Source: an archaeon (GTDB lineage: Archaea; Iainarchaeota; Iainarchaeia; Iainarchaeales; CSSED10-239). Taken from it: a stretch of DNA of 24,623 nucleotides. Under the pieces are notes generated by a model. That model searched no databases, was not told where the DNA came from, and saw only the letters and a list, made by a program, of their open reading frames with translations. Below, piece by piece: positions 1 through 17,139 of this stretch. The stretch's first letter is position 1, and every line of letters starts with the position of its first letter. The DNA lies in NCBI GenBank assembly GCA_041677685.1, contig JBAYPN010000011.1, positions 1 to 24,623 on the forward strand. Direction: 5' to 3'. Both the position numbers and the translations under genes were made by a program.

Positions 1-561
1 GAAAAAGCAATTAGAGATATTTTTAAAAAAGCAAAAAATGTTTCTCCATGTATTCTTTTTTTTGATGAAATTGATTCCTTAACACAGAATAAAGAAGACT
101 TGATTGGAGGAGGACCCAAAGTCTTAGATCAACTTCTAACAGAGCTAGATAATGTTTCTCTAAAAGACATAATTTTTATAGCTGCAACTAACAGACCTGA
201 CTTGATTGACAAATCTTTTTTAAGAAGTGGACGAATTGACAAGATCATTGAATTTAAAATTCCAAGTGCAAAAGAAAGAAAAGAAATAATTGATCTTCTT
301 ATTAAAAAGACTCCACACGAGAAAATAAATATCAATTTAATTGTTGAAGAAACTGATGGATTTGTTGGAGCTGACCTTAGCTTGCTAATTACTGATGCAA
401 CCCTTTTAGCAATCAAACAAAATAAATATAAGGAAACAAAACTAAAAGAAGAGCACATTATAACCATTCTAAAAAAGATGAAAAGCCATAACAAAGGTGG
501 TAAAAATAAAGCCTCTGATGATTTTAGAAATGATAAGTCTATTGCAAAATATATTCAGTAG
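1..561 (+). CDS. AAA+ ATPase, C-terminal part (CDC48/VCP- or PAN-like); 5' end cut by the window edge
   Basis: Frame 1 is open from base 1: EKAIRDIFKKAKNVSPCILFFDEIDSL (Walker B DExx region), then FIAATNRPDLIDKSFLRSGRIDKIIEF (second region of homology with arginine fingers). The ORF-track entry 100..561 is only the TTG-truncated tail. Stop TAG at 559-561. Confidence 0.85.
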   Translation, partial: EKAIRDIFKKAKNVSPCILFFDEIDSLTQNKEDLIGGGPKVLDQLLTELDNVSLKDIIFIAATNRPDLIDKSFLRSGRIDKIIEFKIPSAKERKEIIDLLIKKTPHEKININLIVEETDGFVGADLSLLITDATLLAIKQNKYKETKLKEEHIITILKKMKSHNKGGKNKASDDFRNDKSIAKYIQ

Positions 562-595: not shown

Positions 596-1231
596 CTATA
601 AAACAAACAAGAACAAAACAGGAATAGCAATAGTAACTAACCAAATAATAGGGTTCCACAAAAATATACTTTTTCCATCAAGCGGACCAATTGGAATTAA
701 ATTAAATAAAGCTATCCAAAAATTAATAAAGATTCCATAGGTAATAATGATTGCTGGTAGTCCCAAAAAAGCAAGACCAAAGAAAACAAAACCCATAATG
801 ATGTTAATAACAGGTCCTGCAAGAGAGGTTATGCCTTCTTCTTTAACACTTAACCTTTTACCGTAGATGTACACAGCTCCAGGGGCAACAAAAACAAATC
901 CCACTAAAAAAGACAGACCTATAGAAAATAATAAAGAATTTTTCCACTTTACAAATTTTGCTTTTGCACCAAACCTAATTGCTGTGTATTTGTGTGCAAG
1001 TTCGTGGAGGATAAAGGATGTTCCAGTAACAATTAGGCTAACTCCTAAAAATATTAAAAAATTAATAATTGTAAATTCCTTTAATTGGCTTGAGAAAAGA
1101 TGATAACCACTAAGGACTATTGTAAAGCATAGAGAGATAACTAACCAAGCAATAACAATATCTTTAACTTCATTGTGTTTTTTTGGTTTATACTGTTCTG
1201 CATAGTCTTCAAAATTATATTCTTCTTCCAT
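596..1231 (-). CDS. Site-2-protease-type (M50) intramembrane zinc metalloprotease
   Basis: 211-aa polytopic membrane protein with HELAHK (HExxH) in a hydrophobic segment. The distal NLIPIGPLDG motif is typical of S2P/M50 peptidases. Confidence 0.8.
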   Translation of the reverse strand: MEEEYNFEDYAEQYKPKKHNEVKDIVIAWLVISLCFTIVLSGYHLFSSQLKEFTIINFLIFLGVSLIVTGTSFILHELAHKYTAIRFGAKAKFVKWKNSLLFSIGLSFLVGFVFVAPGAVYIYGKRLSVKEEGITSLAGPVINIIMGFVFFGLAFLGLPAIIITYGIFINFWIALFNLIPIGPLDGKSIFLWNPIIWLVTIAIPVLFLFVL

Positions 1232-3960: not shown

Positions 3961-4845
3961 ATGGCTTTTTCAAAAAATCCAAAAGAAATAATTGAATTAA
4001 GTTTAGAGGAAAAACTATATCTTTTATTTTTGCCTTTAACTAGAGAAATTACCTCTAAAAGCTTTGAACATAAATTAGAGCAAGCAGACATACCTCTAGA
4101 CATGGATGTTTATTTAGCAAAGAATTTATTTTTTGCAGTGTTTGTCTCTTTTTTGGTTTTAATTTTTGGAATAATTTTGATTGTGATGTCTCCAGGGATT
4201 ATTTCTTTTGGAACTCTTTTAATTATTTTTTTTGGTGTGTTTTTTGCTTACGTAGTTTACACTATAATTAATCCCTACATGGTTGTCGGAACAAAGGTAA
4301 ACAGTATTAAAGCAAACCTGCCATTAGTTATCTTAGGGATGTCATCTGTTGCAGAATCAGGAGCACCACCAGCATCCATTTTTTCAACATCAACTGTTAA
4401 AGATAAAAGTCAATATGTAAATAAAGAATTTTCAAAAATTGTATATTACATAGACTCTCTAGGGATTTCTTTGTTAGAAGCAATTGATCTAGTTGCAAAT
4501 AAAACACCATCCTTTGAGCTTAAAAAATTTTTAATGGATTTAAAATCAAATATTGAGTCAGGTGGAGATCTTTCTGACTTTATGTCTAAAAAAGCATCCC
4601 AGGCTAAATTCCAGTATGATCTTTTACTTGATAATCAAAATAAAAAAGCAGAGATGTTTGGTGACATCTATTCTGCTGTTGTAATTGCAGGACCATTATT
4701 TTTATTTTCAGGAGTTATGCTTTTGGGAATGGTTGGTGGTGGCATTGCTGGAATAAGTATAAGTGCTTTATTAACTTTAGGTGTTTTTGTTTTAGTGCCT
4801 ATAATGAATATAATATTTTTAATTGTAATGAATTTATTTCAATAA
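3961..4845 (+). CDS. Type II secretion system F-domain membrane protein (FlaJ/TadC/PilC-like platform, half 1)
   Basis: N- and C-terminal TM bundles flank a cytoplasmic helical domain (LPLVILGMSSVAESGAPPASIF...LLEAIDLVANKTPSFELKKFLMDLKSNIESGGDLSDFM) typical of T2SSF domains. Confidence 0.75.
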   Translation: MAFSKNPKEIIELSLEEKLYLLFLPLTREITSKSFEHKLEQADIPLDMDVYLAKNLFFAVFVSFLVLIFGIILIVMSPGIISFGTLLIIFFGVFFAYVVYTIINPYMVVGTKVNSIKANLPLVILGMSSVAESGAPPASIFSTSTVKDKSQYVNKEFSKIVYYIDSLGISLLEAIDLVANKTPSFELKKFLMDLKSNIESGGDLSDFMSKKASQAKFQYDLLLDNQNKKAEMFGDIYSAVVIAGPLFLFSGVMLLGMVGGGIAGISISALLTLGVFVLVPIMNIIFLIVMNLFQ

Positions 4846-4866: not shown

Positions 4867-5715
4867 TTGGATTTGGATTTAAAATTAAATTTAAGTGATA
4901 AGCAAAAGTTTTTTCTAGACTATGCTGTAAAAGGTTTAATTGGTAGTATAATTGCTTTTGTATTATTGTATAACACAAAGATCTTAATATTTTCTTTTTT
5001 TCCTCTACTTGTAGCAATTGGTTTAGCTGCAAAAATCTATACTGCGAGAATAAAGTCTTATGAAAGAAATTTGTTTGTTTTTTTAGATGACCTTAAAGAT
5101 CTTTTACAAGGTGGTATGAATATTGTTACTGCTGTTGAGATTTCTACAACTCATGATTACGGGGCATTAAATGAAAAGATTAGAAGACTTGCTGCACAAG
5201 TAAAGATTGGGGTTTCTTTTGATAAAGCGCTTTCTGATATTTTTGGAGAAATTGATAGTCCTATTTACAAGCAAGTAATTCAAATTATTTCAGAAACTAC
5301 AAAAATTGGAGGAAGTATAATTAAGATATTTTCATCTATTTCAAGCTATGTTAGGACCCTAAACGACATGGTTGATCAAAGAAAATCAAAAACCTTCTCT
5401 ACTGTTTTTTCAAGTTATTTTATGTTTTTTGTTTTTATTGCAATTATTTTAATAATTCAGATTATCTTTTTACCAATGCTTAGTGGGGAAGGTGTGTCTA
5501 TGAGTGGGGAAGGGGCAAGTCAAGTAAATGCTTTGGCAGATGTTGATTTTAACAGTTATTTTTTATATTTAATTTTAATTCAAGGATTTTTTGCAGGTCC
5601 AATAATTGGTAAGATTTCAGAAGGAAATGCAATTGCAGGTGTTAAGCATTCAATTATTTTAATTAGTGTTTCTGTGCCAATATATGTTTTGGTGTCTTTG
5701 TTGTTTATTGGGTAA
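4867..5715 (+). CDS. Type II secretion system F-domain membrane protein (FlaJ/TadB/PilC-like platform, half 2)
   Basis: A second T2SSF-like domain (LDDLKDLLQGGMNIVTAVEIST...VSFDKALSDIFGEIDSPIYKQVIQIISETTKIGGSI) followed by TM helices. TTG start 21 nt after the previous stop; AAGGAG lies upstream. The exact start is uncertain. Confidence 0.7.
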   Translation: MDLDLKLNLSDKQKFFLDYAVKGLIGSIIAFVLLYNTKILIFSFFPLLVAIGLAAKIYTARIKSYERNLFVFLDDLKDLLQGGMNIVTAVEISTTHDYGALNEKIRRLAAQVKIGVSFDKALSDIFGEIDSPIYKQVIQIISETTKIGGSIIKIFSSISSYVRTLNDMVDQRKSKTFSTVFSSYFMFFVFIAIILIIQIIFLPMLSGEGVSMSGEGASQVNALADVDFNSYFLYLILIQGFFAGPIIGKISEGNAIAGVKHSIILISVSVPIYVLVSLLFIG

Positions 5716-5853: not shown

Positions 5854-5918
5854 AGTATAGGTAATATATTTAATATAATTTGGAAATATTGTTTCCTAAA
5901 AAATATATGTTGATAAAA

Positions 5919-6389
5919 ATGTTTGTTATAAAAAGTCAAAGAGGGTTATCTCCATTAATTGCAACAATCTTGTTGGTTGCAGTTGCTTTATCGTTAGCTG
6001 GGATTTTGTATTCTTGGTCATCCCAAAATGCAAAAGAAACAACTGGTAATTTAACTGACACAACTAATGAATGGATCGATTGTAGTTCAATTGATATATA
6101 CATTGATTATGGGTGTACATATCATGAGACAAATGGAATTAACTTTATACTTTATGATAAGTCAACAGTGGAAATTGATGATAATATTACATTGACTGTT
6201 ATTGATGCCAATAACACTGTTAGAAGTGCAAGTTTTGCTCCTAACTTTGTAGGTAATGCCATGGCTATTAACAATAATGTAATTACAAATGATTCAGATT
6301 TTCAAAATTTAGTAAAGCCTTTAAAAAGGGTGTCTGTGCAAGTTGACTCTTGTCCAGACAGAGTAGCTTATGTTACAAAATGTAATTGA
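5919..6389 (+). CDS. Archaeal type IV pilin-like protein (class III signal peptide, flagellin-N-terminal-like domain), paralog 1
   Basis: MFVIKSQRG|LSPLIATILLVAVALSLAGIL is a short basic leader followed by the conserved hydrophobic N-terminus. It has four Cys in the same relative positions as paralogs 2 and 3. Alternative starts are 5880 (TTG) and 5907 (ATG). Confidence 0.8.
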   Translation: MFVIKSQRGLSPLIATILLVAVALSLAGILYSWSSQNAKETTGNLTDTTNEWIDCSSIDIYIDYGCTYHETNGINFILYDKSTVEIDDNITLTVIDANNTVRSASFAPNFVGNAMAINNNVITNDSDFQNLVKPLKRVSVQVDSCPDRVAYVTKCN

Positions 6390-6448
6390 AAGTAAATTAA
6401 AAATATTTGAACAAAATAAAATAAATTAAAATGAATAGGTGATATGAA

Positions 6449-6931
6449 ATGAAAAGAAAAGCAATCTCTCCATTAATTGCAACAATTTTGTTAGTTGTTG
6501 TTGCTGTTGCTTTAATTGCAATAGTTTTGACATGGGGTAAAACATTTACACAAGATAGTTTAGCTGAGACTACTGACATTATTGATAGTAGTTGTTCAGG
6601 TGCACATTTAAATGTCTCAAATTGTAAAGTAGGTACTGATGGTAATATAACATTCTATGTTAAAAATATAGGAACAACCTATACATTCCCTTTAACTGAT
6701 GAATTTATGATTGACATTACTACAGATGATAGTAAAGATTCAACTAACCTAAATCTTACAAATTATGCAACTTGGGCAGGATTAGGTCCAGGCCAGATGG
6801 TTCAAGTAGATATGGATTTATCTAATTTAGGCGGTAAAGATATTAGTTCAGGAACATTTTTTGATGTTACTGTAAGATCTTCAGTTTGTCCAACAGATGC
6901 TGTTGCTACAGCAAAGAATTGTCACAGATGA
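6449..6931 (+). CDS. Archaeal type IV pilin-like protein, paralog 2
   Basis: MKRKA|ISPLIATILLVVVAVALIAIVL; AGGTGA sits 7 nt upstream of the ATG. Cys pairs occur at SSCSGAHLNVSNC and VCPTDAVATAKNC. Confidence 0.85.
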   Translation: MKRKAISPLIATILLVVVAVALIAIVLTWGKTFTQDSLAETTDIIDSSCSGAHLNVSNCKVGTDGNITFYVKNIGTTYTFPLTDEFMIDITTDDSKDSTNLNLTNYATWAGLGPGQMVQVDMDLSNLGGKDISSGTFFDVTVRSSVCPTDAVATAKNCHR

Positions 6932-7010
6932 TGTGACTGTTCTTTTTTTACTTTTTTTATTTTAAAAAAGTATTTTTTATCTTTAATAAATAAATTAAAA
7001 AAGAGAATCT

Positions 7011-7457
7011 ATGAAAAGAAAAGCAATTTCTCCATTAATCGCAACAATCTTGTTAATAGTTGTTGCTGTTGTCTTAGTTGGAATATTAGTATCTTGGGGG
7101 CAGAATTTTGTGCAAAAAGGTACTACTGATGCTGACAACTCAATTGACACCACTTGTACAGGTGCTGGAATAAACATTATTACTTGTGATTATAATAGTT
7201 CTGGTCAAGAAATCAAATTAACAATTGTAAACTCAGGAAATGTAAGATTTAATTCTGATAACACTTTTGATGTTCTTTTAATTGATTCAGATAACAATTT
7301 AGATAACTCTAATCTAAATGTTTTGTCTTCAAGAGAATTTGATATAGGAGAATCAGAAGCAATTACAATTTCAGATTATTCCGGAAGAGGTCCTGTAAAG
7401 CTAGAGATTAGAAATTCACAATGTCCTGGTTATTTTTGGGCAACAAGATGTAGTTAG
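7011..7457 (+). CDS. Archaeal type IV pilin-like protein, paralog 3
   Basis: MKRKA|ISPLIATILLIVVAVVLVGILV; its 5' nucleotides are nearly identical to paralog 2. Cys pairs occur at TTCTGAGINIITC and QCPGYFWATRC. Confidence 0.85.
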   Translation: MKRKAISPLIATILLIVVAVVLVGILVSWGQNFVQKGTTDADNSIDTTCTGAGINIITCDYNSSGQEIKLTIVNSGNVRFNSDNTFDVLLIDSDNNLDNSNLNVLSSREFDIGESEAITISDYSGRGPVKLEIRNSQCPGYFWATRCS

Positions 7458-8278: not shown

Positions 8279-8969
8279 TAAGTTCTCCACAGACTATCAT
8301 TGTTTGTGGGAATTCTTTAATTTTTAATTTTTTATAGTCTTTAAAAGTAAAGCCAATAATCTTTTGTTCATCACAACCCATTCTAACTAAAGCTAAACAA
8401 TTTAAATTTTCTAATATTTTCTTTTCATCAATTTTTTCCAGAATTTCACAAGCTTCATAAACACTCATAAACCTGTTCTCTAAAACTTTTATGTCTAGTA
8501 AACAAAAGGTGTGTGCCTTTATCTTAAGGTTGTCAAGAATAACATCATAGAAGCTTGTTGGAAAATAGTTCTTTTCAGGGTAAACAATTGAAACTGTTTT
8601 TCCAAACTTATATTCATAGAGACCTGAGTGTGCTCTGTAATTGAAGATTGAAATTCCAGGAATTACTTTTATTTTAATATTTTTAGATTTTGCTTCTTGA
8701 TAAAGGGAATAGTGAGTAGTTGCAGACAAGACATTACCAATCACTAAAAGGCAAGAATCTTTTTTAAGAAATTTTTTCTCTTGCTCAAGCTCTGTTCTAT
8801 TTAGTGTGATTATTTTTTTTGTAATTATTTTTTCTAAACTTAGGAGTTCTCCTTTGCTAAAGATGTTTGTGTAATTATCAATATACACTTCTTTACAATC
8901 TTTTATTGCATTCTTTGCTTCTAAGGTTAATTGCTCAGGAACAAGTCCAATACCTATTATGTAAAACAT
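8235..8969 (-). CDS. dph5: Diphthine synthase (tetrapyrrole-methylase-fold Dph5)
   Basis: MFYIIGIGLVPEQLTLEAKNAIKDCKEVYIDNYT is the canonical Dph5 N-terminus. The length (244 aa) and the VIGNVLSATTH and IPGIS motifs also fit. Confidence 0.85.
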   Translation of the reverse strand: MFYIIGIGLVPEQLTLEAKNAIKDCKEVYIDNYTNIFSKGELLSLEKIITKKIITLNRTELEQEKKFLKKDSCLLVIGNVLSATTHYSLYQEAKSKNIKIKVIPGISIFNYRAHSGLYEYKFGKTVSIVYPEKNYFPTSFYDVILDNLKIKAHTFCLLDIKVLENRFMSVYEACEILEKIDEKKILENLNCLALVRMGCDEQKIIGFTFKDYKKLKIKEFPQTMIVCGELNDFERVAIDEHRIN

Positions 8970-9352
8970 TAATAATAAACTCCTATCTCTATATATATTA
9001 CTTTATTAGAACTATTAATATATTTAATGGATTGGGAGATTAATTGGTTTTCATTTTTAGATTTGGAATTTATTTCTTTTAGTTTTGAATCTATCTTAAC
9101 GTAACCTTTATTTTCAAAAAGCTTATTATAATTTTTTTCAAGGTCTTTTAGGTTGTCTATCTCTAAGAGTTGAGAAGTAATCAACAGGTCAGAGATTCTA
9201 GAAGTAATTATTATTTTTTCTAGATCCTTGTCTGTGTTTGTTGTTGTGCTCATGTTGAAGGAAAAGAGGAGTATGGTTATAAAGATTAAAGCAAATAACC
9301 CATCAATTGTAAAAAATAAACCTCTATTTTTATTCACAAAAACCAACCTCAA
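8969..9352 (-). CDS. Pilin-like protein with class III-type signal (fourth gene of the operon)
   Basis: ..VNKNRG|LFFTIDGLFALIFITILLFSF is a basic leader, Gly, then a hydrophobic helix. Candidate starts are TTG 9352, TTG 9346 and GTG 9337. Its stop overlaps the dph5 ATG by 1 nt (TAATG). Confidence 0.55.
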   Translation of the reverse strand: MRLVFVNKNRGLFFTIDGLFALIFITILLFSFNMSTTTNTDKDLEKIIITSRISDLLITSQLLEIDNLKDLEKNYNKLFENKGYVKIDSKLKEINSKSKNENQLISQSIKYINSSNKVIYIEIGVYY

Positions 9353-9752
9353 TTATTTTAAAATCATTGTTGTTGACAACTGCTCTTTTTATTATGTTTA
9401 TTATAATTTTATTTTGTGTGTTTTTAATAACTTCTTTTGAGTCAATTTTAAGTAAACAGATTTTTTGGAAATTATTTGTTATCTGTGTTAGGTTTTTAAT
9501 TTCTATTTTGTTTTTGGAGCAGAGGTTAGTGGTCTTATTTAGTGTTGCAAGATATTTGCAGTCTGTTATTAGTTGTTCAACAACCATCTCTTTTTCTAAA
9601 AGTTTTATGTCTTTTGTATCATTTTCAATTTTGGTCTTATAGTTGTAAATTTCTTGAAATTCTATGTTGATTAATAATATACAGATAATTAATAAAATCA
9701 AAATATCAAGAATCATTACCTGTGCTTTGCTTGATCTTAAGACAAGAGTCAT
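9330..9752 (-). CDS. Pilin-like protein with class III-type signal (Gln +1), third gene of the operon
   Basis: MTLVLRSSKA|QVMILDILILLIICILL. ATG at 9752; the track start at 9758 is a TTG two codons upstream. Confidence 0.55.
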   Translation of the reverse strand: MTLVLRSSKAQVMILDILILLIICILLINIEFQEIYNYKTKIENDTKDIKLLEKEMVVEQLITDCKYLATLNKTTNLCSKNKIEIKNLTQITNNFQKICLLKIDSKEVIKNTQNKIIINIIKRAVVNNNDFKIIEVGFCE

Positions 9753-9945
9753 TTGCAATTACTCCATTGTTCTTTTCTAAGATGTGGTTTTTGATGACAC
9801 ATATTTTGTTATTATAATCTTTGTAGTTTATTTTTGTTTCTAGTTTATTTTTATAATTAATATTTAGGTTTATAAAAAGACTAAGAACAATTAACAATAT
9901 TAAAATTGATAAAATAAATTCAATTGTGATTTGCCCTCTAGGTAT
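9706..9945 (-). CDS. Pilin-like ORF whose signal and processing site lie upstream of any canonical start codon
   Basis: The track ORF starts at TTG 9897 (MLIVLSLFI...). The same frame is open back to the stop at 9952-9954 and reads LPIPRG|QITIEFILSILILLIVLSLFI, with Gln+1 and Glu+5. There is no ATG, GTG or TTG upstream of RGQ. ATA at 9943-9945 is the only near-cognate candidate. Confidence 0.4.
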   Translation of the reverse strand: MPRGQITIEFILSILILLIVLSLFINLNINYKNKLETKINYKDYNNKICVIKNHILEKNNGVIANDSCLKIKQSTGNDS

Positions 9946-10450
9946 AGGTAATCACCATTACTGAGTAGTTGGCAGGTAATGTTTTTTGGGAGAAGTAGTT
10001 GTTTGTGGTTATTGAGTATCTTAAAAATAGGTTTTTATTGATTCCGTTTGTTATAATATATTTTTTGACAATAATGTTTTTGGAGGGTTTGTAGATGATG
10101 ACTTTTGAGGTTTCTTGGAGTCTAGAAAAGCTTAACTTTTCTTCTTTATTTTCTTTAAGATCATACATCTTAACCTTTATGTTCTCTTCTCTTTGGAGAT
10201 AGTTGAGGATTTCGTAGTTAACCTTTTTCTTGATCAAGTCCTCGTCTTCCTCTCTCTCGCCAAGCTGGTTCCTAATAAGTTGCTCTAAGTTATATTCAAA
10301 GTTAGTAACCTGAGTCTCACTAATATTTATCTCTATAAAGTCAGAGAGTCCTTCTTTTTGGGAGCCACTAATAAATAAAAGAAAAGTTAATGCAAAAAGC
10401 AATGTGAAGATAGACACCATTGCCTTTCTATTTTTAATTATACCTTTCAT
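9938..10450 (-). CDS. Secreted or pilin-like protein with class III-like signal, first gene of the operon
   Basis: MKGIIKNRKA|MVSIFTLLFALTFLLFISG followed by a hydrophilic domain of about 140 aa. ATG at 10450. Confidence 0.55.
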   Translation of the reverse strand: MKGIIKNRKAMVSIFTLLFALTFLLFISGSQKEGLSDFIEINISETQVTNFEYNLEQLIRNQLGEREEDEDLIKKKVNYEILNYLQREENIKVKMYDLKENKEEKLSFSRLQETSKVIIYKPSKNIIVKKYIITNGINKNLFLRYSITTNNYFSQKTLPANYSVMVITYT

Positions 10451-10754: not shown

Positions 10755-10801
10755 ACTTTATAAGCCTAGTTAATTTCTAAGGGGGGTAGCTTGCCGAGAA
10801 A
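10755..10801 (+). repeat. Left arm of the 47-bp inverted repeat (30-bp perfect core aatttctaaggggggtagcttgccgagaaa)
   Basis: 10772-10801 is the exact reverse complement of 14630-14659. Identity is 44/47 over 10755-10801 versus 14630-14676. Confidence 0.95.
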
Positions 10802-10884: not shown

Positions 10885-11178
10885 TTAGTTTTTAGAATAA
10901 TATTTTTGTTTTGGACTTGTGGGTTTATTTGGTTCTGTTAACAATAATAAGCTTTTATTTAGTAAAGGTTTTAATAATTCTGATCTAAAATAACCTCTGT
11001 TTTTTAATTTTAAATAAGCTTGTATCTCATCTATAGTTTTAGGTGTTTTACAGAATTTAAGTATTTTAGCTTGAGGGGTAGCTTACGGGGTGATAAGAAT
11101 AATAATCTTAAAAACATCTTTTTCTATTAATTCTGGTACTCCATCTGAGTAGTTTTTCACATACTTAGTTAAATTTCT
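10885..11178 (-). pseudogene. C-terminal remnant of a wHTH regulator of the AlbA_2/'RecG-like C-terminal' (Schlafen-like ATPase/Fic-associated) type
   Basis: The minus-strand frame reads RNLTKYVKNYSDGVPELIEKDVFKIIILITP*ATPQAKILKFCKTPKTIDEIQAYLKLKNRGYFRSELLKPLLNKSLLLLTEPNKPTSPKQKYYSKN*. The tail (ILxFC...EI...L.LK.R..FR...L.PL....LL..T.P.KPxSPxQKY) is the characteristic C-terminus of that family. It has an in-frame TAA at 11083-11085, no start codon, and lacks roughly the N-terminal three quarters of the protein. Confidence 0.6.
11073..11094 (+). repeat. Degenerate third copy of the G-run repeat core
   Basis: gaggggtagcttacggggtg matches the ggggggtagcttgccgagaa core at 14 of 22 aligned positions and shares the 10-mer ggggtagctt. 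It has the same orientation as the left arm. Confidence 0.5.
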
Positions 11179-11291: not shown

Positions 11292-12383
11292 ATGGGATCT
11301 ATTAAAAAGAATATATTTTCAGACACAGATATTGAAAAATCAATATTTAAAGATGAAAGTGTTTTCTATCCTGATTACCACCCACAAAATATACTAGCAA
11401 GAGATTCCCAAATTAAAAACCTAACCTATTACTTAAAACCAATCATTTCTAAAAAAAAAGCAAACAACATATTAATCTCAGGACCTCCAGGAACAGGAAA
11501 AACCTTAATTACAAATTATGTTTTAAATCAACTAACAGATTTTTCAAACAAAGTAAAATTTATATATATTAATTGCATACAAGACAACACAAGATTTGCA
11601 GTACTATCAAAACTAGTAAGCTTCTACAACGGAGTTTTACCAAGAAGAGGACTTGCAATTGATGAAGTATGGCAAAGATTAACAGAACTTTTCTCAAAAT
11701 CAGAAATCTTCCCAATAATTGTTCTAGATGAAATTGATAAAATGGATCTAGATGATTCTTCAAAGCTTTTGTATGATCTTTCAAGATTTTATATTAATTC
11801 AAAGTATTTTACTTTAATTCTAATTACCAACCACAAACCCTTTATTCTAAAATTAGATACAAGAACACAAAGTTCATTATTCTTAAATGAAATTGATTTT
11901 TTAAAATATAAACCAACAGAGATTAAACAAATTTTAAAAGAAAGAATTGAATTTGGATTAATTGACAATTGCTTATCCCAAGATCTTTTAGGCTATGTTT
12001 GTGGTTATTCAGCTTCTAGAGGAGGAGATGCAAGAATTGCAATTGACTTAATCTATAAATCTGCAAAGGCTTCAGAAAAGAGAGGTGAATTAGTTATTTT
12101 AAAAGAAGTCTTATTAGATTCTTCAAAATTAGTAGATTCTGTTAAGCTTTTTGAAAAGATAGAATGTCTAAATCAAAGAGAACAAGAGATTTTAAATTTA
12201 ATTGAAGAACCAATAACTACCAAAGACTTATATCTAAATACAAAGATTCCTCAAAGAACAGTAAGAAACATAATTGATGCTTTAGAAAAATTAGAACTAA
12301 TTTCTGTAGATTCTTTAAGTCAAGGGAAAGGAAAGACAAGAGTAATTAAATTAAGATTTGATAAAAGCCTTTTAAAGAATTAA
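11292..12383 (+). CDS. cdc6: Orc1/Cdc6 replication initiator
   Basis: Walker A ISGPPGTGKTL, Walker B IVLDEIDKM, sensor region LILITN, an arginine-rich lid (SRGGDARIAIDL) and a C-terminal winged helix (PQRTVRNIIDALEKLELI). Confidence 0.9.
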   Translation: MGSIKKNIFSDTDIEKSIFKDESVFYPDYHPQNILARDSQIKNLTYYLKPIISKKKANNILISGPPGTGKTLITNYVLNQLTDFSNKVKFIYINCIQDNTRFAVLSKLVSFYNGVLPRRGLAIDEVWQRLTELFSKSEIFPIIVLDEIDKMDLDDSSKLLYDLSRFYINSKYFTLILITNHKPFILKLDTRTQSSLFLNEIDFLKYKPTEIKQILKERIEFGLIDNCLSQDLLGYVCGYSASRGGDARIAIDLIYKSAKASEKRGELVILKEVLLDSSKLVDSVKLFEKIECLNQREQEILNLIEEPITTKDLYLNTKIPQRTVRNIIDALEKLELISVDSLSQGKGKTRVIKLRFDKSLLKN

Positions 12384-12538
12384 AATTAATTACATAAAAA
12401 TAAAAAAAGAATAAGATAAAAATAATATCAAAAATAAATAAAAGAAAATCAAATTAAAAAAAGAATAAGAAACAAAATTAAATATAAATAAAAATTAAAA
12501 AGAATAAAAAAATAAAAAAAGAGAATAAAGAAAAGAAC
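12384..12538. repeat. A-rich low-complexity tract with 16-bp direct repeats
   Basis: Almost only A, with sparse G and T, on the + strand. taaaaaaagaataaga occurs at 12401-12416 and 12455-12470, with degenerate copies near 12497-12529. On the minus strand it gives multiple oligo-T runs immediately after the pcna stop. Confidence 0.85.
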
Positions 12539-13291
12539 CTAATCACTATCTACTCTTGGTGCTAAAAAATATCTAATTGCTGCAGAACCAATTGTGTAAT
12601 CTAGTTCTAAAGGCATGTCATCTTTCAATTTAATTGTAAGCATTGTCTTTGCATTCTTAATCATATTTTGTAAATAATCCAAAGGATACATTGCTTTTGC
12701 TTTATTTCCAGAGATGATTAGATTTTTAGAATCTGCTTCAATTTCTTGCTTAAACTTACCTTTACTACTTTGAGTTTCTAAAAATAATTTATTATCTTCA
12801 ACTCTAAAGCTTAGATGAGAACTAAACAAAGAAGCATCTTTAATACCTCCAAGAAGTTGGTCAGGCATGATCTGAATAGTTACATCAAATTGTATTTTTG
12901 GAAGTGGTTGTTCTTGTTTAGAAACATCAATTAAAGGTATACTAAAGCTTCTTTTTGAACTTCCAATAAGTTCTATTAATATAATTGATCTATCTTCTTT
13001 TATTTCTAAAACTAACTTCTCATCTGCTGAGGAGTGAGATAAAATCTGTAAAAGATTATTAATATTTATACCAAATGTTATTTTGTCTTCATCTTGAGAA
13101 GTATCAATTACAAATTCTTCAAAAGCATCTTTTGGCATAACAAAATCAACTAAACTAATTTGGCTAGGATCTGTTGCCCTTAGGTAAATTTTATCTTTAT
13201 CTATAGTAAATAATCCTTCATTTATTAAAACTCCAATTGCATCTATGCTTTTATGGAATTCTTTTGTATCTTTAATTACTAACTTAATCAT
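12539..13291 (-). CDS. pcn: DNA polymerase sliding clamp PCNA
   Basis: 250 aa with a typical N-terminus (..KEFHKSIDAIGVLINEGLFTIDKDKIYLRATDPSQISLVDFVMPKDAFEEF) and C-terminal YFLAPRVD. Confidence 0.9.
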   Translation of the reverse strand: MIKLVIKDTKEFHKSIDAIGVLINEGLFTIDKDKIYLRATDPSQISLVDFVMPKDAFEEFVIDTSQDEDKITFGININNLLQILSHSSADEKLVLEIKEDRSIILIELIGSSKRSFSIPLIDVSKQEQPLPKIQFDVTIQIMPDQLLGGIKDASLFSSHLSFRVEDNKLFLETQSSKGKFKQEIEADSKNLIISGNKAKAMYPLDYLQNMIKNAKTMLTIKLKDDMPLELDYTIGSAAIRYFLAPRVDSD

Positions 13292-13439
13292 TTAAAAATC
13301 CCCCTTTTTTTTGTTTTCTTAATTAATTTTTTTAATTTTAATAATTATTTATTATTTTATTAGTATATTAGGTATAAAATGGTTTTTAAATAAGTGTTTT
13401 TTTAAATTAAAGAAAGAAACTTTTAATTAAAGAAAGAAA

Positions 13440-13961
13440 TTAAATAATTATAGTTATATATACCCAACCAATTATTAAAAAAAACCTAAAAATAAAGGAT
13501 TGATCTAAAACCTCAAACAACCATGCTAAGATTAATAAGATTAAAGTGATTGGGAAAATTAAGATTTTAAAGATCCAACTAACTATACTTTGTTTTTTTG
13601 TGTAGCTGTTTTTTATAGAGGAATATACATTTTTTGAATCTTGTTTGCTTGGAACACTAAAAAACAGTGAAGAGATTGCAATCCAAACAAGAATGACAAT
13701 AAATATTATTTTTAATTCTATTCTTTTAATAACAATTGAGATAATTATTGCAAGTAAGAGATTTATAAAAAAAGGAGCCATGGAGATAAGTATATTTTTG
13801 TAGTTTCTAGAAGCTTCATGCACAACATATCCTCCTGAACTTCCAATCAATTTAAATTTTTTAATTTTTACTCCTAGAAGTAGGCAGGCTAACATATGTG
13901 AGAGTTCATGGGTTGTAATTCCAATAAAGAAGAATTTGTTTAAGAAATTATTTAAGTTCAT
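13440..13961 (-). CDS. Polytopic membrane protein with HExxH motif (DUF3267/M50-like putative zincin)
   Basis: FIGITTHELSHMLACLLLG followed by at least four hydrophobic helices. It starts 3 nt after the pilin-like gene's stop. Confidence 0.6.
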   Translation of the reverse strand: MNLNNFLNKFFFIGITTHELSHMLACLLLGVKIKKFKLIGSSGGYVVHEASRNYKNILISMAPFFINLLLAIIISIVIKRIELKIIFIVILVWIAISSLFFSVPSKQDSKNVYSSIKNSYTKKQSIVSWIFKILIFPITLILLILAWLFEVLDQSFIFRFFLIIGWVYITIII

Positions 13962-13964
13962 TAT

Positions 13965-14375
13965 TTATTTTTCCAAAGTTTTATAGTCTAAGATTATTTT
14001 GTTGTTGCTCTTTTCAATAGTTATTGTTGCTGATGTTTTTATTTTTTTAAATTTTAAGACTACTATGTTATTTGAGGTAACTATGTATTCTTTATTTTTA
14101 TTATTAATTTTTAAAGTATTTTGTGTGGTTGTTTGAAAGTTCCATTCTGTTTGCGGGTTAATTGTTAGAGTGGTTATTGCTTTTGGTTGTAGTTTAAGGA
14201 GGTTTAAGGTATTTTGTAGGTCTTTATGTGTGTTTTTAAGTTCAAGGTTATCTATTGCTGTTATGTTTTTAGAGTAGAGGTTTGTGATTTGGTAGATAAG
14301 TATACTTAGAATGGAGATGACTGCTAATGCTATTAATAGATATTCTAAGCTAATTTGTGCTTTTGAACTAATCAC
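13965..14375 (-). CDS. Pilin-like protein (class III signal, Gln+1/Glu+5)
   Basis: GTG start; VISSKA|QISLEYLLIALAVISILSILI. It begins 2 nt after the upstream pilin's stop. Confidence 0.65.
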   Translation of the reverse strand: MISSKAQISLEYLLIALAVISILSILIYQITNLYSKNITAIDNLELKNTHKDLQNTLNLLKLQPKAITTLTINPQTEWNFQTTTQNTLKINNKNKEYIVTSNNIVVLKFKKIKTSATITIEKSNNKIILDYKTLEK

Positions 14376-14377
14376 AA

Positions 14378-14575
14378 CTAATCAATCTTTTCAATCTGCT
14401 TAAAGACATCATTTGATTTTTTATCCACTGCTTTATTTGCTTTGTTTGTTGTTTTTTGTAATTGTGTAACAACAACTAAGACTATTGCAATGATTGCAGC
14501 AATTAAGATTATCATTTCAGCAGATAATTGTGCTTTATTTTCTGCGTATAGTTGTTTAAATCTATTTAGTTTCAT
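14378..14575 (-). CDS. Small type IV pilin (Methanococcus EpdE-like class III signal peptide family)
   Basis: 65 aa: MKLNRFKQLYAENKA|QLSAEMIILIAAIIAIVLVVV followed by a short polar tail. This is the architecture of the small archaeal major pilins. Confidence 0.75.
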   Translation of the reverse strand: MKLNRFKQLYAENKAQLSAEMIILIAAIIAIVLVVVTQLQKTTNKANKAVDKKSNDVFKQIEKID

Positions 14576-14597: not shown

Positions 14598-14607
14598 TAT
14601 TTATAAA
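14598..14607 (-). promoter_or_regulatory. Candidate TATA box for the small-pilin operon
   Basis: The minus strand reads TTTATAAATA, beginning 33 nt upstream of ATG 14575, which is consistent with a leaderless or very short-leader mRNA. Confidence 0.35.
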
Positions 14608-14629: not shown

Positions 14630-14676
14630 TTTCTCGGCAAGCTACCCCCCTTAGAAATTGACTAGGGTTACAAAGT
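14630..14676 (-). repeat. Right arm of the 47-bp inverted repeat
   Basis: This is the reverse complement of 10755-10801: 30 bp perfect and 44/47 overall. Confidence 0.95.
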
Positions 14677-14835: not shown

Positions 14836-17139
14836 ATGATCAAATCAATTTCTTTACAAAATTGGAAGACCCACCAAAAAACCAAACTCTCCTTCAAGAA
14901 AGGAACTAACATTATTCTTGGAACCATTGGCTCAGGAAAGTCAAGTGTTATTGATGGTATCTGTTATGCTCTTTATGGAAACTTTCCTTCTCTTCAAAAT
15001 AGAAAAGTAATTCTTACAGAAAACATAATGTTTAAACCCGCAAAAATGGAGTCTTCAAAAATAGTTTTAGAACTTAATTTCAACAATAACAACTACACAA
15101 TTGAAAGAGAAATCTACCTAAGCTCAAAAGCAAACTATGCAAAACTTTACCAAGACCAAAAATTAATAGCTGGTCCAAAACAAACAGATGTTAATGAAAA
15201 GGTTTCAGAAATTCTAGGAATTGATTATAATCTGTTTACAAAGATTGTTTATTCAGAACAAAACGAACTAGATTACTTTTTAAAAATACAACCTTCTAAA
15301 AGAAAAGAAAAGTTTGATGAGTTATTTGGAATCATCCACCTAAAAGAAATTAAAGAAGACACAAAGAAACTAGAAAATCTAGTCTCTATTGAGATTGACA
15401 AACAACAATCTCTTTTTAACCAAATAATTTCACAACTAAAAGACATTGACATAAACCTACTAAATTCAAAAAAAGAAGATGCAGAAAAAAACCTAATAAC
15501 AATTTCAAAAGACCTCCAAGATTTTAAGATTAAAAAAGAACAATTAGAAAAAGAAGTTAAGATTCTAAAATCAAAAAAACAAAACTTTGAAAACCTAACC
15601 CTACAACTTAATATCAATAAATCTAAATTACAAGAAATAGACCAAAAAATAAACACTTACTTAGAAAAATACCCTTCCCTTTCTTCTAACTTTCAAGAAC
15701 AATTACGTCTAAAGGAACAACAACTACTAGATAAAGAAAAAGAATTTCTTCTTTTCTCAAACAAAAACAAAGATTTAGAAATTAAAAATAAAGATCTAAA
15801 CAACAAATTATCTTTTTATAAAGAACAACTTCAAGTTAATCAAGATAATGTTACCTCTCTTCTAAAAAAACTAACTCCAACAACCAAATCCTCAGACATT
15901 TTAAAAACAGAACTTGAAAACTTAAACAAAGATCTAGAAACAATTAAGACTACCCAAATTAATCTTAACTCAATAACCCAAGACTTAAACAAAGCAATCT
16001 CAGAACTTAAAAAAGGCTTTGCAAATTGTCCTGTCTGCGATTCAAAACTAAACCCTGAACAAGTTACTCAGAAACTTGAAGAAAAAGAACTAAAGTCCTC
16101 TTTAGTCTTTAAACAATTACAAGACATAAAAGATAATCTTCTTTCTCTAAATAAAAAAAAACAAGAGCTTGAGTCTTTAGACAAACAATTACAAGTTAAT
16201 AACACAATCAACCAAGAGATAAACACTCTTAAAGAAAAGAGTTATAGTTTTGAAGAAAAACTAAAAGACCTAAACACCTTGATTGTTAGTTTAGAAAAAC
16301 CAAAAGACCTTTCCTCTCTAGATAAAGAAATCCAAACCATAAAAGAAGAAATTTTTTCTCTAAAAAGTTATTCTGATTTTTTAAAAAATAAAGAAGAAGT
16401 TACTTTTAAAATAAACAATTTTTCTCAAAGTCTAAAGGACCTTAACTTTAATGAAGACACATACATCTCTTTACTTTCTGAATTTAAAAACACAGAATCA
16501 AAGTTCTTAAACCTTAATGATAAAAAAGAGCTTTTCTCAAACATTCTTTTGGATGTTAATAAAAACATAAACACTTACTTTCTTTTAGATTCTCAAAAAC
16601 AAAAGTTAACTAAAACAATATCTGCCTTAGAACTTAAAAAAACAGATCTTTCCTACTTTTCTAAGTCCTTAGAGGTTAGCCAACATCAACTAAGAAAAGT
16701 CTTGATCGACAACATCAATCAAGCCCTAAACATCATCTGGCCAAAAGTCTATGCTTACAATGATTATAAGTCAGCAAGACTACAAGCAAATAATGACTAT
16801 ATCTTAGAGGTTTTAAGTCTAGAAGGAGAATGGTACAGAGTAGAAGGTATACTTTCAGGTGGAGAAAGGAGTTGTGCTGCTTTATCAATAAGGGTGGCAA
16901 TTGCTTTAGTCTTAACAGAGAAGTTAGGTCTATTAATTCTTGATGAACCCACTCATAATCTTGATGAGAAATCAGTTCAATCTTTAGCCACAATTCTAGA
17001 AAAAGAACTTCCTGACCTTGTAGATCAAGTCTTTATTGTTACTCATGATTCTAAGCTTTTAGAAACAGTAAATTCCTCAAAATTTATAATAAACAGAGAT
17101 AAAGAAAATGATGGCGTTTCTTTAGTTGATGAAAGTTAG
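14836..17139 (+). CDS. rad50: Rad50-type SMC-like ATPase with zinc hook
   Basis: Walker A GTIGSGKSS, a coiled coil of about 550 aa, a central CPVC hook (16027-16038), signature LSGGERS, Walker B LLILDEPT and the His-loop VTHD. Confidence 0.85.
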   Translation: MIKSISLQNWKTHQKTKLSFKKGTNIILGTIGSGKSSVIDGICYALYGNFPSLQNRKVILTENIMFKPAKMESSKIVLELNFNNNNYTIEREIYLSSKANYAKLYQDQKLIAGPKQTDVNEKVSEILGIDYNLFTKIVYSEQNELDYFLKIQPSKRKEKFDELFGIIHLKEIKEDTKKLENLVSIEIDKQQSLFNQIISQLKDIDINLLNSKKEDAEKNLITISKDLQDFKIKKEQLEKEVKILKSKKQNFENLTLQLNINKSKLQEIDQKINTYLEKYPSLSSNFQEQLRLKEQQLLDKEKEFLLFSNKNKDLEIKNKDLNNKLSFYKEQLQVNQDNVTSLLKKLTPTTKSSDILKTELENLNKDLETIKTTQINLNSITQDLNKAISELKKGFANCPVCDSKLNPEQVTQKLEEKELKSSLVFKQLQDIKDNLLSLNKKKQELESLDKQLQVNNTINQEINTLKEKSYSFEEKLKDLNTLIVSLEKPKDLSSLDKEIQTIKEEIFSLKSYSDFLKNKEEVTFKINNFSQSLKDLNFNEDTYISLLSEFKNTESKFLNLNDKKELFSNILLDVNKNINTYFLLDSQKQKLTKTISALELKKTDLSYFSKSLEVSQHQLRKVLIDNINQALNIIWPKVYAYNDYKSARLQANNDYILEVLSLEGEWYRVEGILSGGERSCAALSIRVAIALVLTEKLGLLILDEPTHNLDEKSVQSLATILEKELPDLVDQVFIVTHDSKLLETVNSSKFIINRDKENDGVSLVDES

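Follow-up and report, generated by a model that had tools for sequence, protein, structure and literature searches.

An operon of two pilin-like genes and a minimal site-2-protease-like gene in an archaeon related to Candidatus Iainarchaeum

Introduction

The Epd pili of Methanococcus maripaludis (MMP1685/EpdE, the minor pilins EpdA-C, and the peptidase EppA) are the closest described counterpart of the locus considered here, a likely operon of two pilin-like genes and one metalloprotease-like gene at positions 13440 to 14575 (minus strand) of a 24,623-nucleotide (nt) stretch of archaeal DNA (NCBI GenBank assembly GCA_041677685.1, contig JBAYPN010000011.1), to which we refer as the window. The DUF361 pilins of M. 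maripaludis carry a leader of 5 to 13 residues that ends in Gly, followed by Gln at position +1 and Glu at position +5; the major pilin MMP1685 is 74 amino acids (aa) long (62 when mature), the minor pilins measure 130 to 156 aa, and Gln+1 pilins in Methanococcus require a dedicated peptidase (PMC3875500). The hallmark of this "system 1" (clade 1) is a pair of platform genes together with a pilin that lacks a globular domain, and it is found in methanogens, Thermococcales, and DPANN archaea (bioRxiv 10.64898/2026.04.22.720090). Epd major pilins are typically encoded by stand-alone genes (PMC4858521). An additional type of peptidase has already been connected with such pili, as Makarova et al. 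(2016) found transglutaminase-like peptidases (arCOG02164 and arCOG09555) to be genomically linked to clade-1 pili and proposed that they process or degrade pilins (PMC4858521).

Three further systems offer points of comparison. Archaeosortase D is a polytopic membrane peptidase that is not of the A24 type and is partnered with class III proteins bearing a PIP-CTERM signal (TIGR04205). The M50-type membrane proteases of the YydH/LiaK family (NF058609), like Eep and RseP, are encoded with or act on short N-in peptides. Site-2 proteases (S2P; family M50), such as MjS2P of Methanocaldococcus jannaschii (PDB 3B4R), SpoIVFB (8VJL), and RseP, have an HExxH motif in a transmembrane helix, then a beta-hairpin, and a zinc-binding Asp in a later helix. 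The archaeal S2P homologs have no known substrates and no assigned function (PMC9263693).

We conclude that the two pilins encoded here, judged by their sequences, are ordinary members of the Epd/DUF361 group and that the third protein belongs to an uncharacterized branch of a known superfamily. What appears to be new is the presence of a minimal S2P-like protease in a pilin operon specific to one lineage, and the case for functional coupling rests on one conserved synteny. We propose, with a probability of roughly 0.4, that a recruited S2P-like protease cleaves or turns over the co-encoded pilins in the membrane. A first-pass annotation of this DNA had supposed that such a partnership was undescribed, and this appears to be so: neither of two surveys of archaeal type IV filaments includes an M50-type or other metalloprotease component (PMC4858521; bioRxiv 10.64898/2026.04.22.720090), and literature searches for an M50/S2P-pilin link returned only general reviews, in which no such partnership is described.

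Results

Operon structure. The open reading frames (ORFs) were read directly from the sequence. On the minus strand, a 65-aa prepilin gene (14378 to 14575, ATG start) is followed after 2 nt by a 136-aa pilin-like gene (13965 to 14375, GTG start) and, after a further 3 nt, by a 173-aa protease-like gene (13440 to 13961, ATG start). These coordinates and gaps agree exactly with the first-pass annotation, as do the motifs that it quoted, with a slash marking the predicted cleavage site: AENKA/QLSAEMIILIAAIIAIVLVV in the 65-aa protein, ISSKA/QISLEYLLIALAVISIL in the 136-aa protein, and HELSH at residues 18 to 22 of the 173-aa protein. Archaeal TATA boxes usually lie at about -26, and a TATA-box-like element, TTTATAAATA (14598 to 14607, minus strand), is located 22 nt upstream of the ATG of the short pilin gene. 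By analogy with that usual position we infer a promoter role for this element, and its distance from the ATG implies a leaderless transcript or one with a very short leader. Archaeal transcription termination occurs at oligo-T; directly 3' of the protease stop codon, on the coding strand, there are two tandem copies of a T-rich repeat, TTTCTTTCTTTAATTAAA(A/G) (13401 to 13439, minus strand; direct repeat D8), which probably marks the end of the transcription unit. Based on this arrangement, a single short-leader transcript likely spans all three genes. The 260-nt region upstream of the operon matches no known RNA in Rfam or ARAGORN searches, and the scans of the whole window likewise gave zero Rfam matches at gathering thresholds and no tRNA with ARAGORN. 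A scan for sigma-70 promoters and intrinsic terminators, which are bacterial signals and uninformative for an archaeon, gave the same counts as shuffled sequence.

The two pilin-like proteins. Both small proteins had been taken for pilins with class III signal peptides, and the Pfam family PF04021 (Class_IIIsignal) supports this with scores of 28.8 bits for the 65-aa protein and 27.0 bits for the 136-aa protein against a cutoff of 23.7; together with the published signature, these scores place both in the Methanococcus Epd/DUF361 type. The combination of Gln+1 and Glu+5 was considered as a possible novelty and rejected, as it is the published DUF361/Epd signature (PMC3875500).

The 65-aa protein begins with a 15-aa basic leader, MKLNRFKQLYAENKA, which is predicted to be cut before Gln+1 (...AENKA/QLSAEMIILIAAIIAIVLVVV, with Glu+5), and then has a hydrophobic helix (about 22 aa) and a hydrophilic tail of 27 aa that is rich in Lys, without a globular domain. 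On these sequence features it is assigned to the short Epd/Flp-like major-pilin type, at 65 aa compared with 74 aa in M. maripaludis. The residue before the cleavage site is Ala here and Gly in some relatives. A search recovered 32 clusters of homologs at 64 to 98% identity, all but two of them with PF04021, and some of these homologs are named "class III signal peptide-containing protein" or "UPF0333"; a PDB sequence search with the protein returned zero matches. The 30 N-terminal residues of the mature protein are its most conserved part and are nearly invariant among the ten related loci described below, as expected of a filament-forming subunit.

This conservation bears on a different role for the protease, in which it would cut one or both of the small proteins (65 and 136 aa) within the membrane and thereby free a soluble or secreted C-terminal part. 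The analogy is with the curated family NF058609, whose M50-type proteases are co-encoded with small peptide precursors, and the 65-aa protein does have just a short hydrophilic tail beyond its helix. However, a near-invariant N-terminal helix fits a filament pilin and not an anchor that is discarded, and both the PF04021 membership and the size of the protein fit an Epd major pilin. In addition, the operon contains no modification enzyme (radical-SAM or other), the small proteins carry pilin signatures, and the 173-aa protein has no match to NF058609. We therefore consider peptide release to be improbable.

The 136-aa protein has a leader of only 6 aa (MISSKA/QISLEYLLIALAVISILSILIY) and the residues Gln+1, Ser+3, and Glu+5. 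Its AlphaFold (AF2) model, with a predicted local distance difference test (pLDDT) value of 89.1, consists of a 58-residue N-terminal helix (residues 3 to 60) and a seven-stranded domain. When a profile of the protein was compared with PDB sequences, the best match was to the first helix (alpha-1) of 9egp_A, a pilin from Geobacter (E = 0.013). The model itself drew no significant match in Foldseek, so the pilin character of this protein rests on its N-terminal signature and predicted architecture; a pilin fold is plausible on the model. Its length would place it in the minor-pilin size class, within the range of about 130 to 156 aa that accompanies the very short pilin in Epd systems. In two related loci (L020, 834 to 1226, and L063, 4602 to 4985), the middle protein has Phe at +1 (KG/FISLEY), yet the short pilin there retains Gln+1; position +1 thus varies within one operon.

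The 173-aa metalloprotease-like protein. The first-pass annotation described the third gene product as a zincin-like polytopic membrane protein with an HExxH motif, a description that stands and can be refined to a minimal site-2-protease/M50B-like protein. It scores 36.1 bits against PF13398 (Peptidase_M50B; cutoff 26) and 24.7 bits, just under the cutoff of 27.1, against PF11667 (DUF3267, "putative zincin peptidase"). The motif H18-E-L-S-H22 lies inside a predicted helix, residues 12 to 29, which would be the first transmembrane helix (TM1). In the AF2 model (pLDDT 95.5; predicted template-modeling score [pTM] 0.88), this helix is followed by a beta-hairpin (33 to 48), helices 53 to 80 and 85 to 100, a break at the PS motif, and three more helices. 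The top Foldseek matches of the model are 3b4r_A (probability 1.00) and then the SpoIVFB:pro-sigmaK complex 8vjl_A, and the best match of the family profile among PDB sequences is again 3B4R (E = 0.021), over a region that covers both HExxH and PSxxD. In that alignment, PSxxD (P104-S105-x-x-D108) coincides with FPMDG of MjS2P, the position of the third zinc ligand, although the canonical LDG/NxxP context is absent. On the model and this alignment, the order of HExxH helix, hairpin, and later Asp would resemble that of site-2 proteases, whereas the protein is much smaller, lacks PDZ and CBS domains, and has PSxxD in place of NxxPxxxLDG. The hairpin loop carries basic residues, from which it would lie on the cytoplasmic side and orient the active site toward the cytoplasmic leaflet.

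A profile built from eight close homologs recovered 873 cluster representatives at E <= 1e-3, most of them 165 to 200 aa long and mostly from DPANN archaea. Whether the HExxH residues are conserved had been posed as a check on the annotation, and they are invariant in all eight close homologs and in 40 of 40 diverse ones. The alignment of these 40 members shows that G14, H18, E19, H22, P63, P104, S105, and D108 are invariant, thus including a conserved Asp, and that P13, C26, V46, H48, I59, and W93 are nearly so, giving the family signature FPGxxxHExxH ... YVxH ... APF ... W ... FPSxxD. A Pfam search of ten longer family members for informative (Rosetta-stone) domain fusions yielded nothing of use. 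An identity as an A24 (GxGD) peptidase was rejected for this HExxH protein, which has no A24 match up to E = 10. On sequence and model together, we assign the 173-aa protein to the S2P family as a minimal (M50B-like) intramembrane zinc metalloprotease, which is probably active.

The conservation of these residues also counts against a partner that does not cut at all and serves the pilins as a membrane scaffold, chaperone, or anchor. The first-pass annotation had included anchoring among the roles that it proposed, and small polytopic membrane proteins are common as accessory components in archaeal type IV filament loci (PMC4858521). Yet H18, E19, H22, and D108 are invariant over the 40 diverse members, the pilin-linked ones included, and a noncatalytic role is hard to uphold for a protein in which the catalytic residues do not vary. 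We regard it as scarcely credible.

Conservation of the three genes as a unit. A word-indexed search identified eight clusters of close protease homologs (46 to 100% identical). Every close homolog with readable context has the same gene order, namely short pilin, pilin-like protein of 127 to 143 aa, and protease; the homologs P0041 and P0051, on contigs of about 1 kb or less, come without gene context. This triad occurs in at least 10 distinct related loci from different metagenomes or metagenome-assembled genomes (MAGs), with gaps between genes of -14 to +28 nt and overlaps of 1 to 14 nt in several relatives. Over 10 triad loci, identity to the window is 52 to 97% for the pilin, 27 to 83% for the middle protein, and 45 to 87% for the protease. 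Two look-ups begun from pilin homologs both arrived at the same triad, and a FlaFind-like scan recovered both pilins in seven of seven triad loci.

The triad is always divergent from Rad50 in this clade, with an SDR-like gene inserted between Rad50 and the pilin gene in L062 and L072. Its downstream neighbor varies and may be PCNA, a nucleotidyltransferase-like gene that has been inserted there, or an FtsJ-like methyltransferase/rpoK. The genome of the window has an rpoK-S17e-pelota block about 14 kb from the triad, which indicates a rearrangement breakpoint directly after the protease gene in the lineage of L020 and L063. As gene order is kept while the neighbors vary, the three genes behave as a unit. 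In a rough neighbor-joining tree the pilin-linked proteases form a single clade, and this clade is well separated from its relatives, with about 258 bits against the clade profile compared with at most 116 bits for the rest of the family.

Genomic context of the wider family. We sampled 24 loci of distant protease homologs (24 to 36% identical) from Iainarchaeota, Micrarchaeota, Nanoarchaeia, and two bacteria of the Candidate Phyla Radiation (CPR). A hidden Markov model (HMM) of the pilin found nothing significant outside the triad loci, and the matches of the FlaFind-like scan beyond those loci were judged spurious (such as internal fragments of the protease gene or of transporters), apart from one ambiguous 370-aa ORF in L024, from a CPR bacterium. 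The only filament-subunit neighbor found outside the pilin-linked clade is in L025, a Nanoarchaeia MAG, where an archaellin-like gene (17 to 868; PF01917, 79 bits), the N-terminus of which is cut by the contig end, stops 30 nt upstream of the family member (899 to 1447). The neighborhood survey that the first-pass annotation had called for therefore gives a divided answer: pilin linkage recurs in 10 loci within one clade, and none that is credible was seen among the distant homologs save L025.

The distant members have neighbors of another kind. A divergent dnaK-grpE pair lies beside the family member in L007 to L013 (HSP70, 739 to 761 bits; GrpE, 101 to 138 bits), and a winged helix-turn-helix (wHTH) gene of ArsR/MarR-like type, encoding about 144 aa, is directly upstream of it in L008 to L013, L065, and L070. 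The adjacent gene is hsp20 in L015, L017, and L071, the last of which also has grpE, and cdc48 in L070. This context of dnaK-grpE, hsp20, cdc48, and wHTH genes has the look of a heat-shock regulon with a membrane metalloprotease among its members. Such neighbors suggest that the wider family has an ancestry or a role in membrane proteostasis.

Discussion

The two pilins would suit the predicted enzyme as substrates. S2P enzymes such as RseP, SpoIVFB, and Eep cleave type II (N-in/C-out) helices that have short ectodomains. The pilins would match such substrates in their type II orientation and small ectodomain, with about 27 residues of the 65-aa pilin expected to lie outside the membrane. This likeness to known substrates, combined with the proteostasis neighbors of the family, leads us to favor a protease of turnover or quality control.

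In the sequence of events that we propose, the ancestral protease would have been a member of a DPANN family found in heat-shock and proteostasis neighborhoods, and one lineage would have recruited it to a pilin operon. In the present DPANN (Iainarchaeota-like) archaeon, that operon would run from the TATA-like box through the three genes to the oligo-T repeat. The products of the first two genes, as Epd/"system 1" prepilins, would insert N-in/C-out and lose their short basic leaders before Gln+1. The active site of the third (H18, E19, H22, and D108) would be situated in the cytoplasmic leaflet, from where the enzyme would cut the N-terminal transmembrane (alpha-1) helix of the co-encoded pilins. 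The outcome would be that the pool of unassembled or surplus pilin in the membrane is cleared or limited.

Several observations weigh against this proposal. The pilin linkage is probably, in effect, a single evolutionary event, as the one clade in the tree indicates that it arose once, and the synteny with Rad50 upstream persists across that clade, which may reflect inertia in a compact genome. Apart from the archaellin-like gene of L025, no credible pilin neighbor occurs in the 24 distant loci, where the context suggests general membrane proteostasis and not a family dedicated to pilins. Many S2P substrates need a helix-breaking residue, and the pilin helix QLSAEMIILIAAIIAIVLVVV has no obvious one. 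The assignment of the enzyme has weak points of its own, as PF02163 (Peptidase_M50) scores 22.9 bits against a cutoff of 27.2 and the S2P fold match of the model is moderate (3b4r_A, template-modeling score 0.46, E = 1.6e-2).

Some of the same observations would be explained if the protease were a general membrane quality-control enzyme with a wide set of substrates, analogous to HtpX or a housekeeping S2P, that came to lie behind two pilin genes in a single ancestor and is co-transcribed with the pilins but has no specific relation to them. The chaperone, cdc48, and wHTH neighbors of the wider family, which are not pilins, agree with this, as do the single origin of the linkage and the synteny of the whole region from Rad50 to the triad, and DPANN genomes are compact, so that short intergenic gaps are common in them. 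On the other hand, the triad has outlasted both rearrangements downstream and insertions upstream, its genes overlap by 1 to 14 nt in several relatives, and the strong divergence of the clade (about 258 versus at most 116 bits) fits a change of role. We take an enzyme that merely travels with the pilins to be a considerable possibility, though one that we are inclined to doubt. The suggestion in the first-pass annotation of a dedicated pilin factor is thus upheld as far as linkage at the level of the clade goes, and it is opposed by the adjacency of the wider family to dnaK-grpE, hsp20, cdc48, and wHTH genes.

The locus also invites the question of what removes the pilin leaders. No A24 peptidase, EppA included, and no pilus or secretion ATPase was seen in about 45 kb (the window and 10 kb at each end) of a genome of about 0.7 to 1 Mb, which is a difference from the Epd system. 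This led us to consider an S2P-like prepilin peptidase, that is, a minimal metalloprotease that takes the role of EppA and matures Gln+1 pilins, either through removal of the leader or through a further, obligatory cleavage near Glu+5. The modeled active site would be near the cytoplasmic face, where the -1/+1 bond is located, the Gln+1 pilins of Methanococcus need a dedicated peptidase (PMC3875500), and some nanoarchaea with pilus ATPases are without any A24 peptidase (PMC4858521). However, the class III signal peptidases characterized so far are all aspartyl enzymes of the A24 type (PMC4858521; bioRxiv 10.64898/2026.04.22.720090), the other class III genes of the window do not adjoin the 173-aa protease gene, distant family members lack pilin neighbors, and the absence of an A24 gene over 45 kb of such a genome carries little weight. 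We judge maturation of the pilins by this enzyme to be very unlikely; if true, it would make this protein the first prepilin peptidase of the metalloprotease type and also the first archaeal enzyme of the S2P family for which a natural substrate is known.

Returning to turnover of the pilins as the preferred role, the comparison with described systems is instructive. The leader that ends in Gly or Ala, the Gln+1 and Glu+5 residues, and the PF04021/DUF361 membership are all as in Epd pili; unlike the stand-alone major pilin genes there, the short pilin gene here is the first of an operon that also encodes another pilin and a metalloprotease. The transglutaminase-like peptidases provide a precedent for an extra peptidase that is linked to Epd-type pili, but they are extracellular Cys enzymes of another fold and from other lineages, whereas the enzyme predicted here is an intramembrane zinc protease. 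The archaeosortase D systems likewise combine a class III protein with a polytopic membrane peptidase outside A24; in contrast, no PIP-CTERM signal or archaeosortase is present here, and the 65-aa pilin scores an insignificant 12.4 bits against TIGR04205 (cutoff 65).

The conserved operon offers a testable enzyme-substrate hypothesis for an archaeal S2P-like enzyme and two small type II membrane proteins. It draws attention to how the pool of unassembled type IV filament subunits is controlled, and an intramembrane protease encoded together with the subunits would add a new type of accessory component to such systems. The analysis also defines a compact S2P-like family (about 170 aa, 873 representatives, mostly DPANN, FPGxxxHExxH...PSxxD) with heat-shock neighbors, which suggest that it serves membrane proteostasis in organisms whose proteomes are very reduced.

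Neighboring genes and repeats in the window

The window has a G+C content of about 27%, and its closest named relatives are Candidatus Iainarchaeum MAGs (DPANN). It encodes the archaeal information-processing proteins Cdc6/Orc1 (11292 to 12383), PCNA (12539 to 13291), Rad50 (14836 to 17139, divergent from the triad), primase, GINS, and aIF2-alpha.

Further filament genes lie within about 10 kb of the triad. Two FlaJ/TadC-type platform genes on the plus strand (3961 to 4845 and 4867 to 5715) match PF00482 (T2SSF) at 36.7 and 55.6 bits and correspond, in NCBIfam terms, to ArlJ divided into its N and C halves. These two proteins likely form the membrane platform for the pilins of the window, and would then serve those at 13965 to 14575 as well. 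As in the Epd system, the platform is thus encoded by two separate genes, and the window combines them with a short pilin that has no globular domain, the hallmark of system 1. The platform genes are followed by three SPLIATILL pilin genes (5880 to 7457) that match TIGR02537 (arch_flag_Nterm) and show weak UpsA similarity; the triad pilins, with PF04021, are indeed of a different class, as the first-pass annotation had remarked, and its suggestion that the cell may build two types of filament is plausible. Across cdc6 from the triad, the minus strand carries three more ORFs (8969 to 10450), the N-termini of which are class III-like (NRG/LFFTIDGLFALIF, SSKA/QVMILDILILL, and NRKA/MVSIFTLLFAL). 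None has a significant family match; the ORFs are syntenic in relatives and, from their sequences, probably encode further minor pilins. A canonical M50 site-2 protease (596 to 1231, minus strand; HELAH ... NLIPIGPLDG) is encoded next to a CDC48/AAA gene (100 to 561, plus strand), so that at least two S2P-family proteins are encoded within 14 kb when the triad protease is counted.

An inverted repeat with arms of 47 nt (left, 10755 to 10801, plus strand; right, 14630 to 14676, minus strand) brackets cdc6, PCNA, the protease, and the pilins. The right arm, which the first-pass annotation had placed close to the operon, is real and is separated from the pilin ATG by 54 nt. The arms are identical at 44 of 47 bases, where none would be expected by chance, and contain a G-string core, TTCTAAGGGGGGTAGCTTGCCGAGAAA, against the low G+C of the genome. 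With a third, partial copy, GGGGTAGCTTACGG (11075 to 11088, plus strand), the repeats surround cdc6/orc1. Among relatives, the core was found only in the closest one, L059, as one copy upstream of cdc6, and more distant relatives have none. One possibility is that the repeats act as origin recognition elements of the ORB-like kind, in which case a replication origin would adjoin the pilin promoter. Between cdc6 and PCNA, positions 12393 to 12529 form an A-rich low-complexity tract of overlapping degenerate repeats; should the G-string repeats mark an origin, this tract may serve as a DNA-unwinding element.

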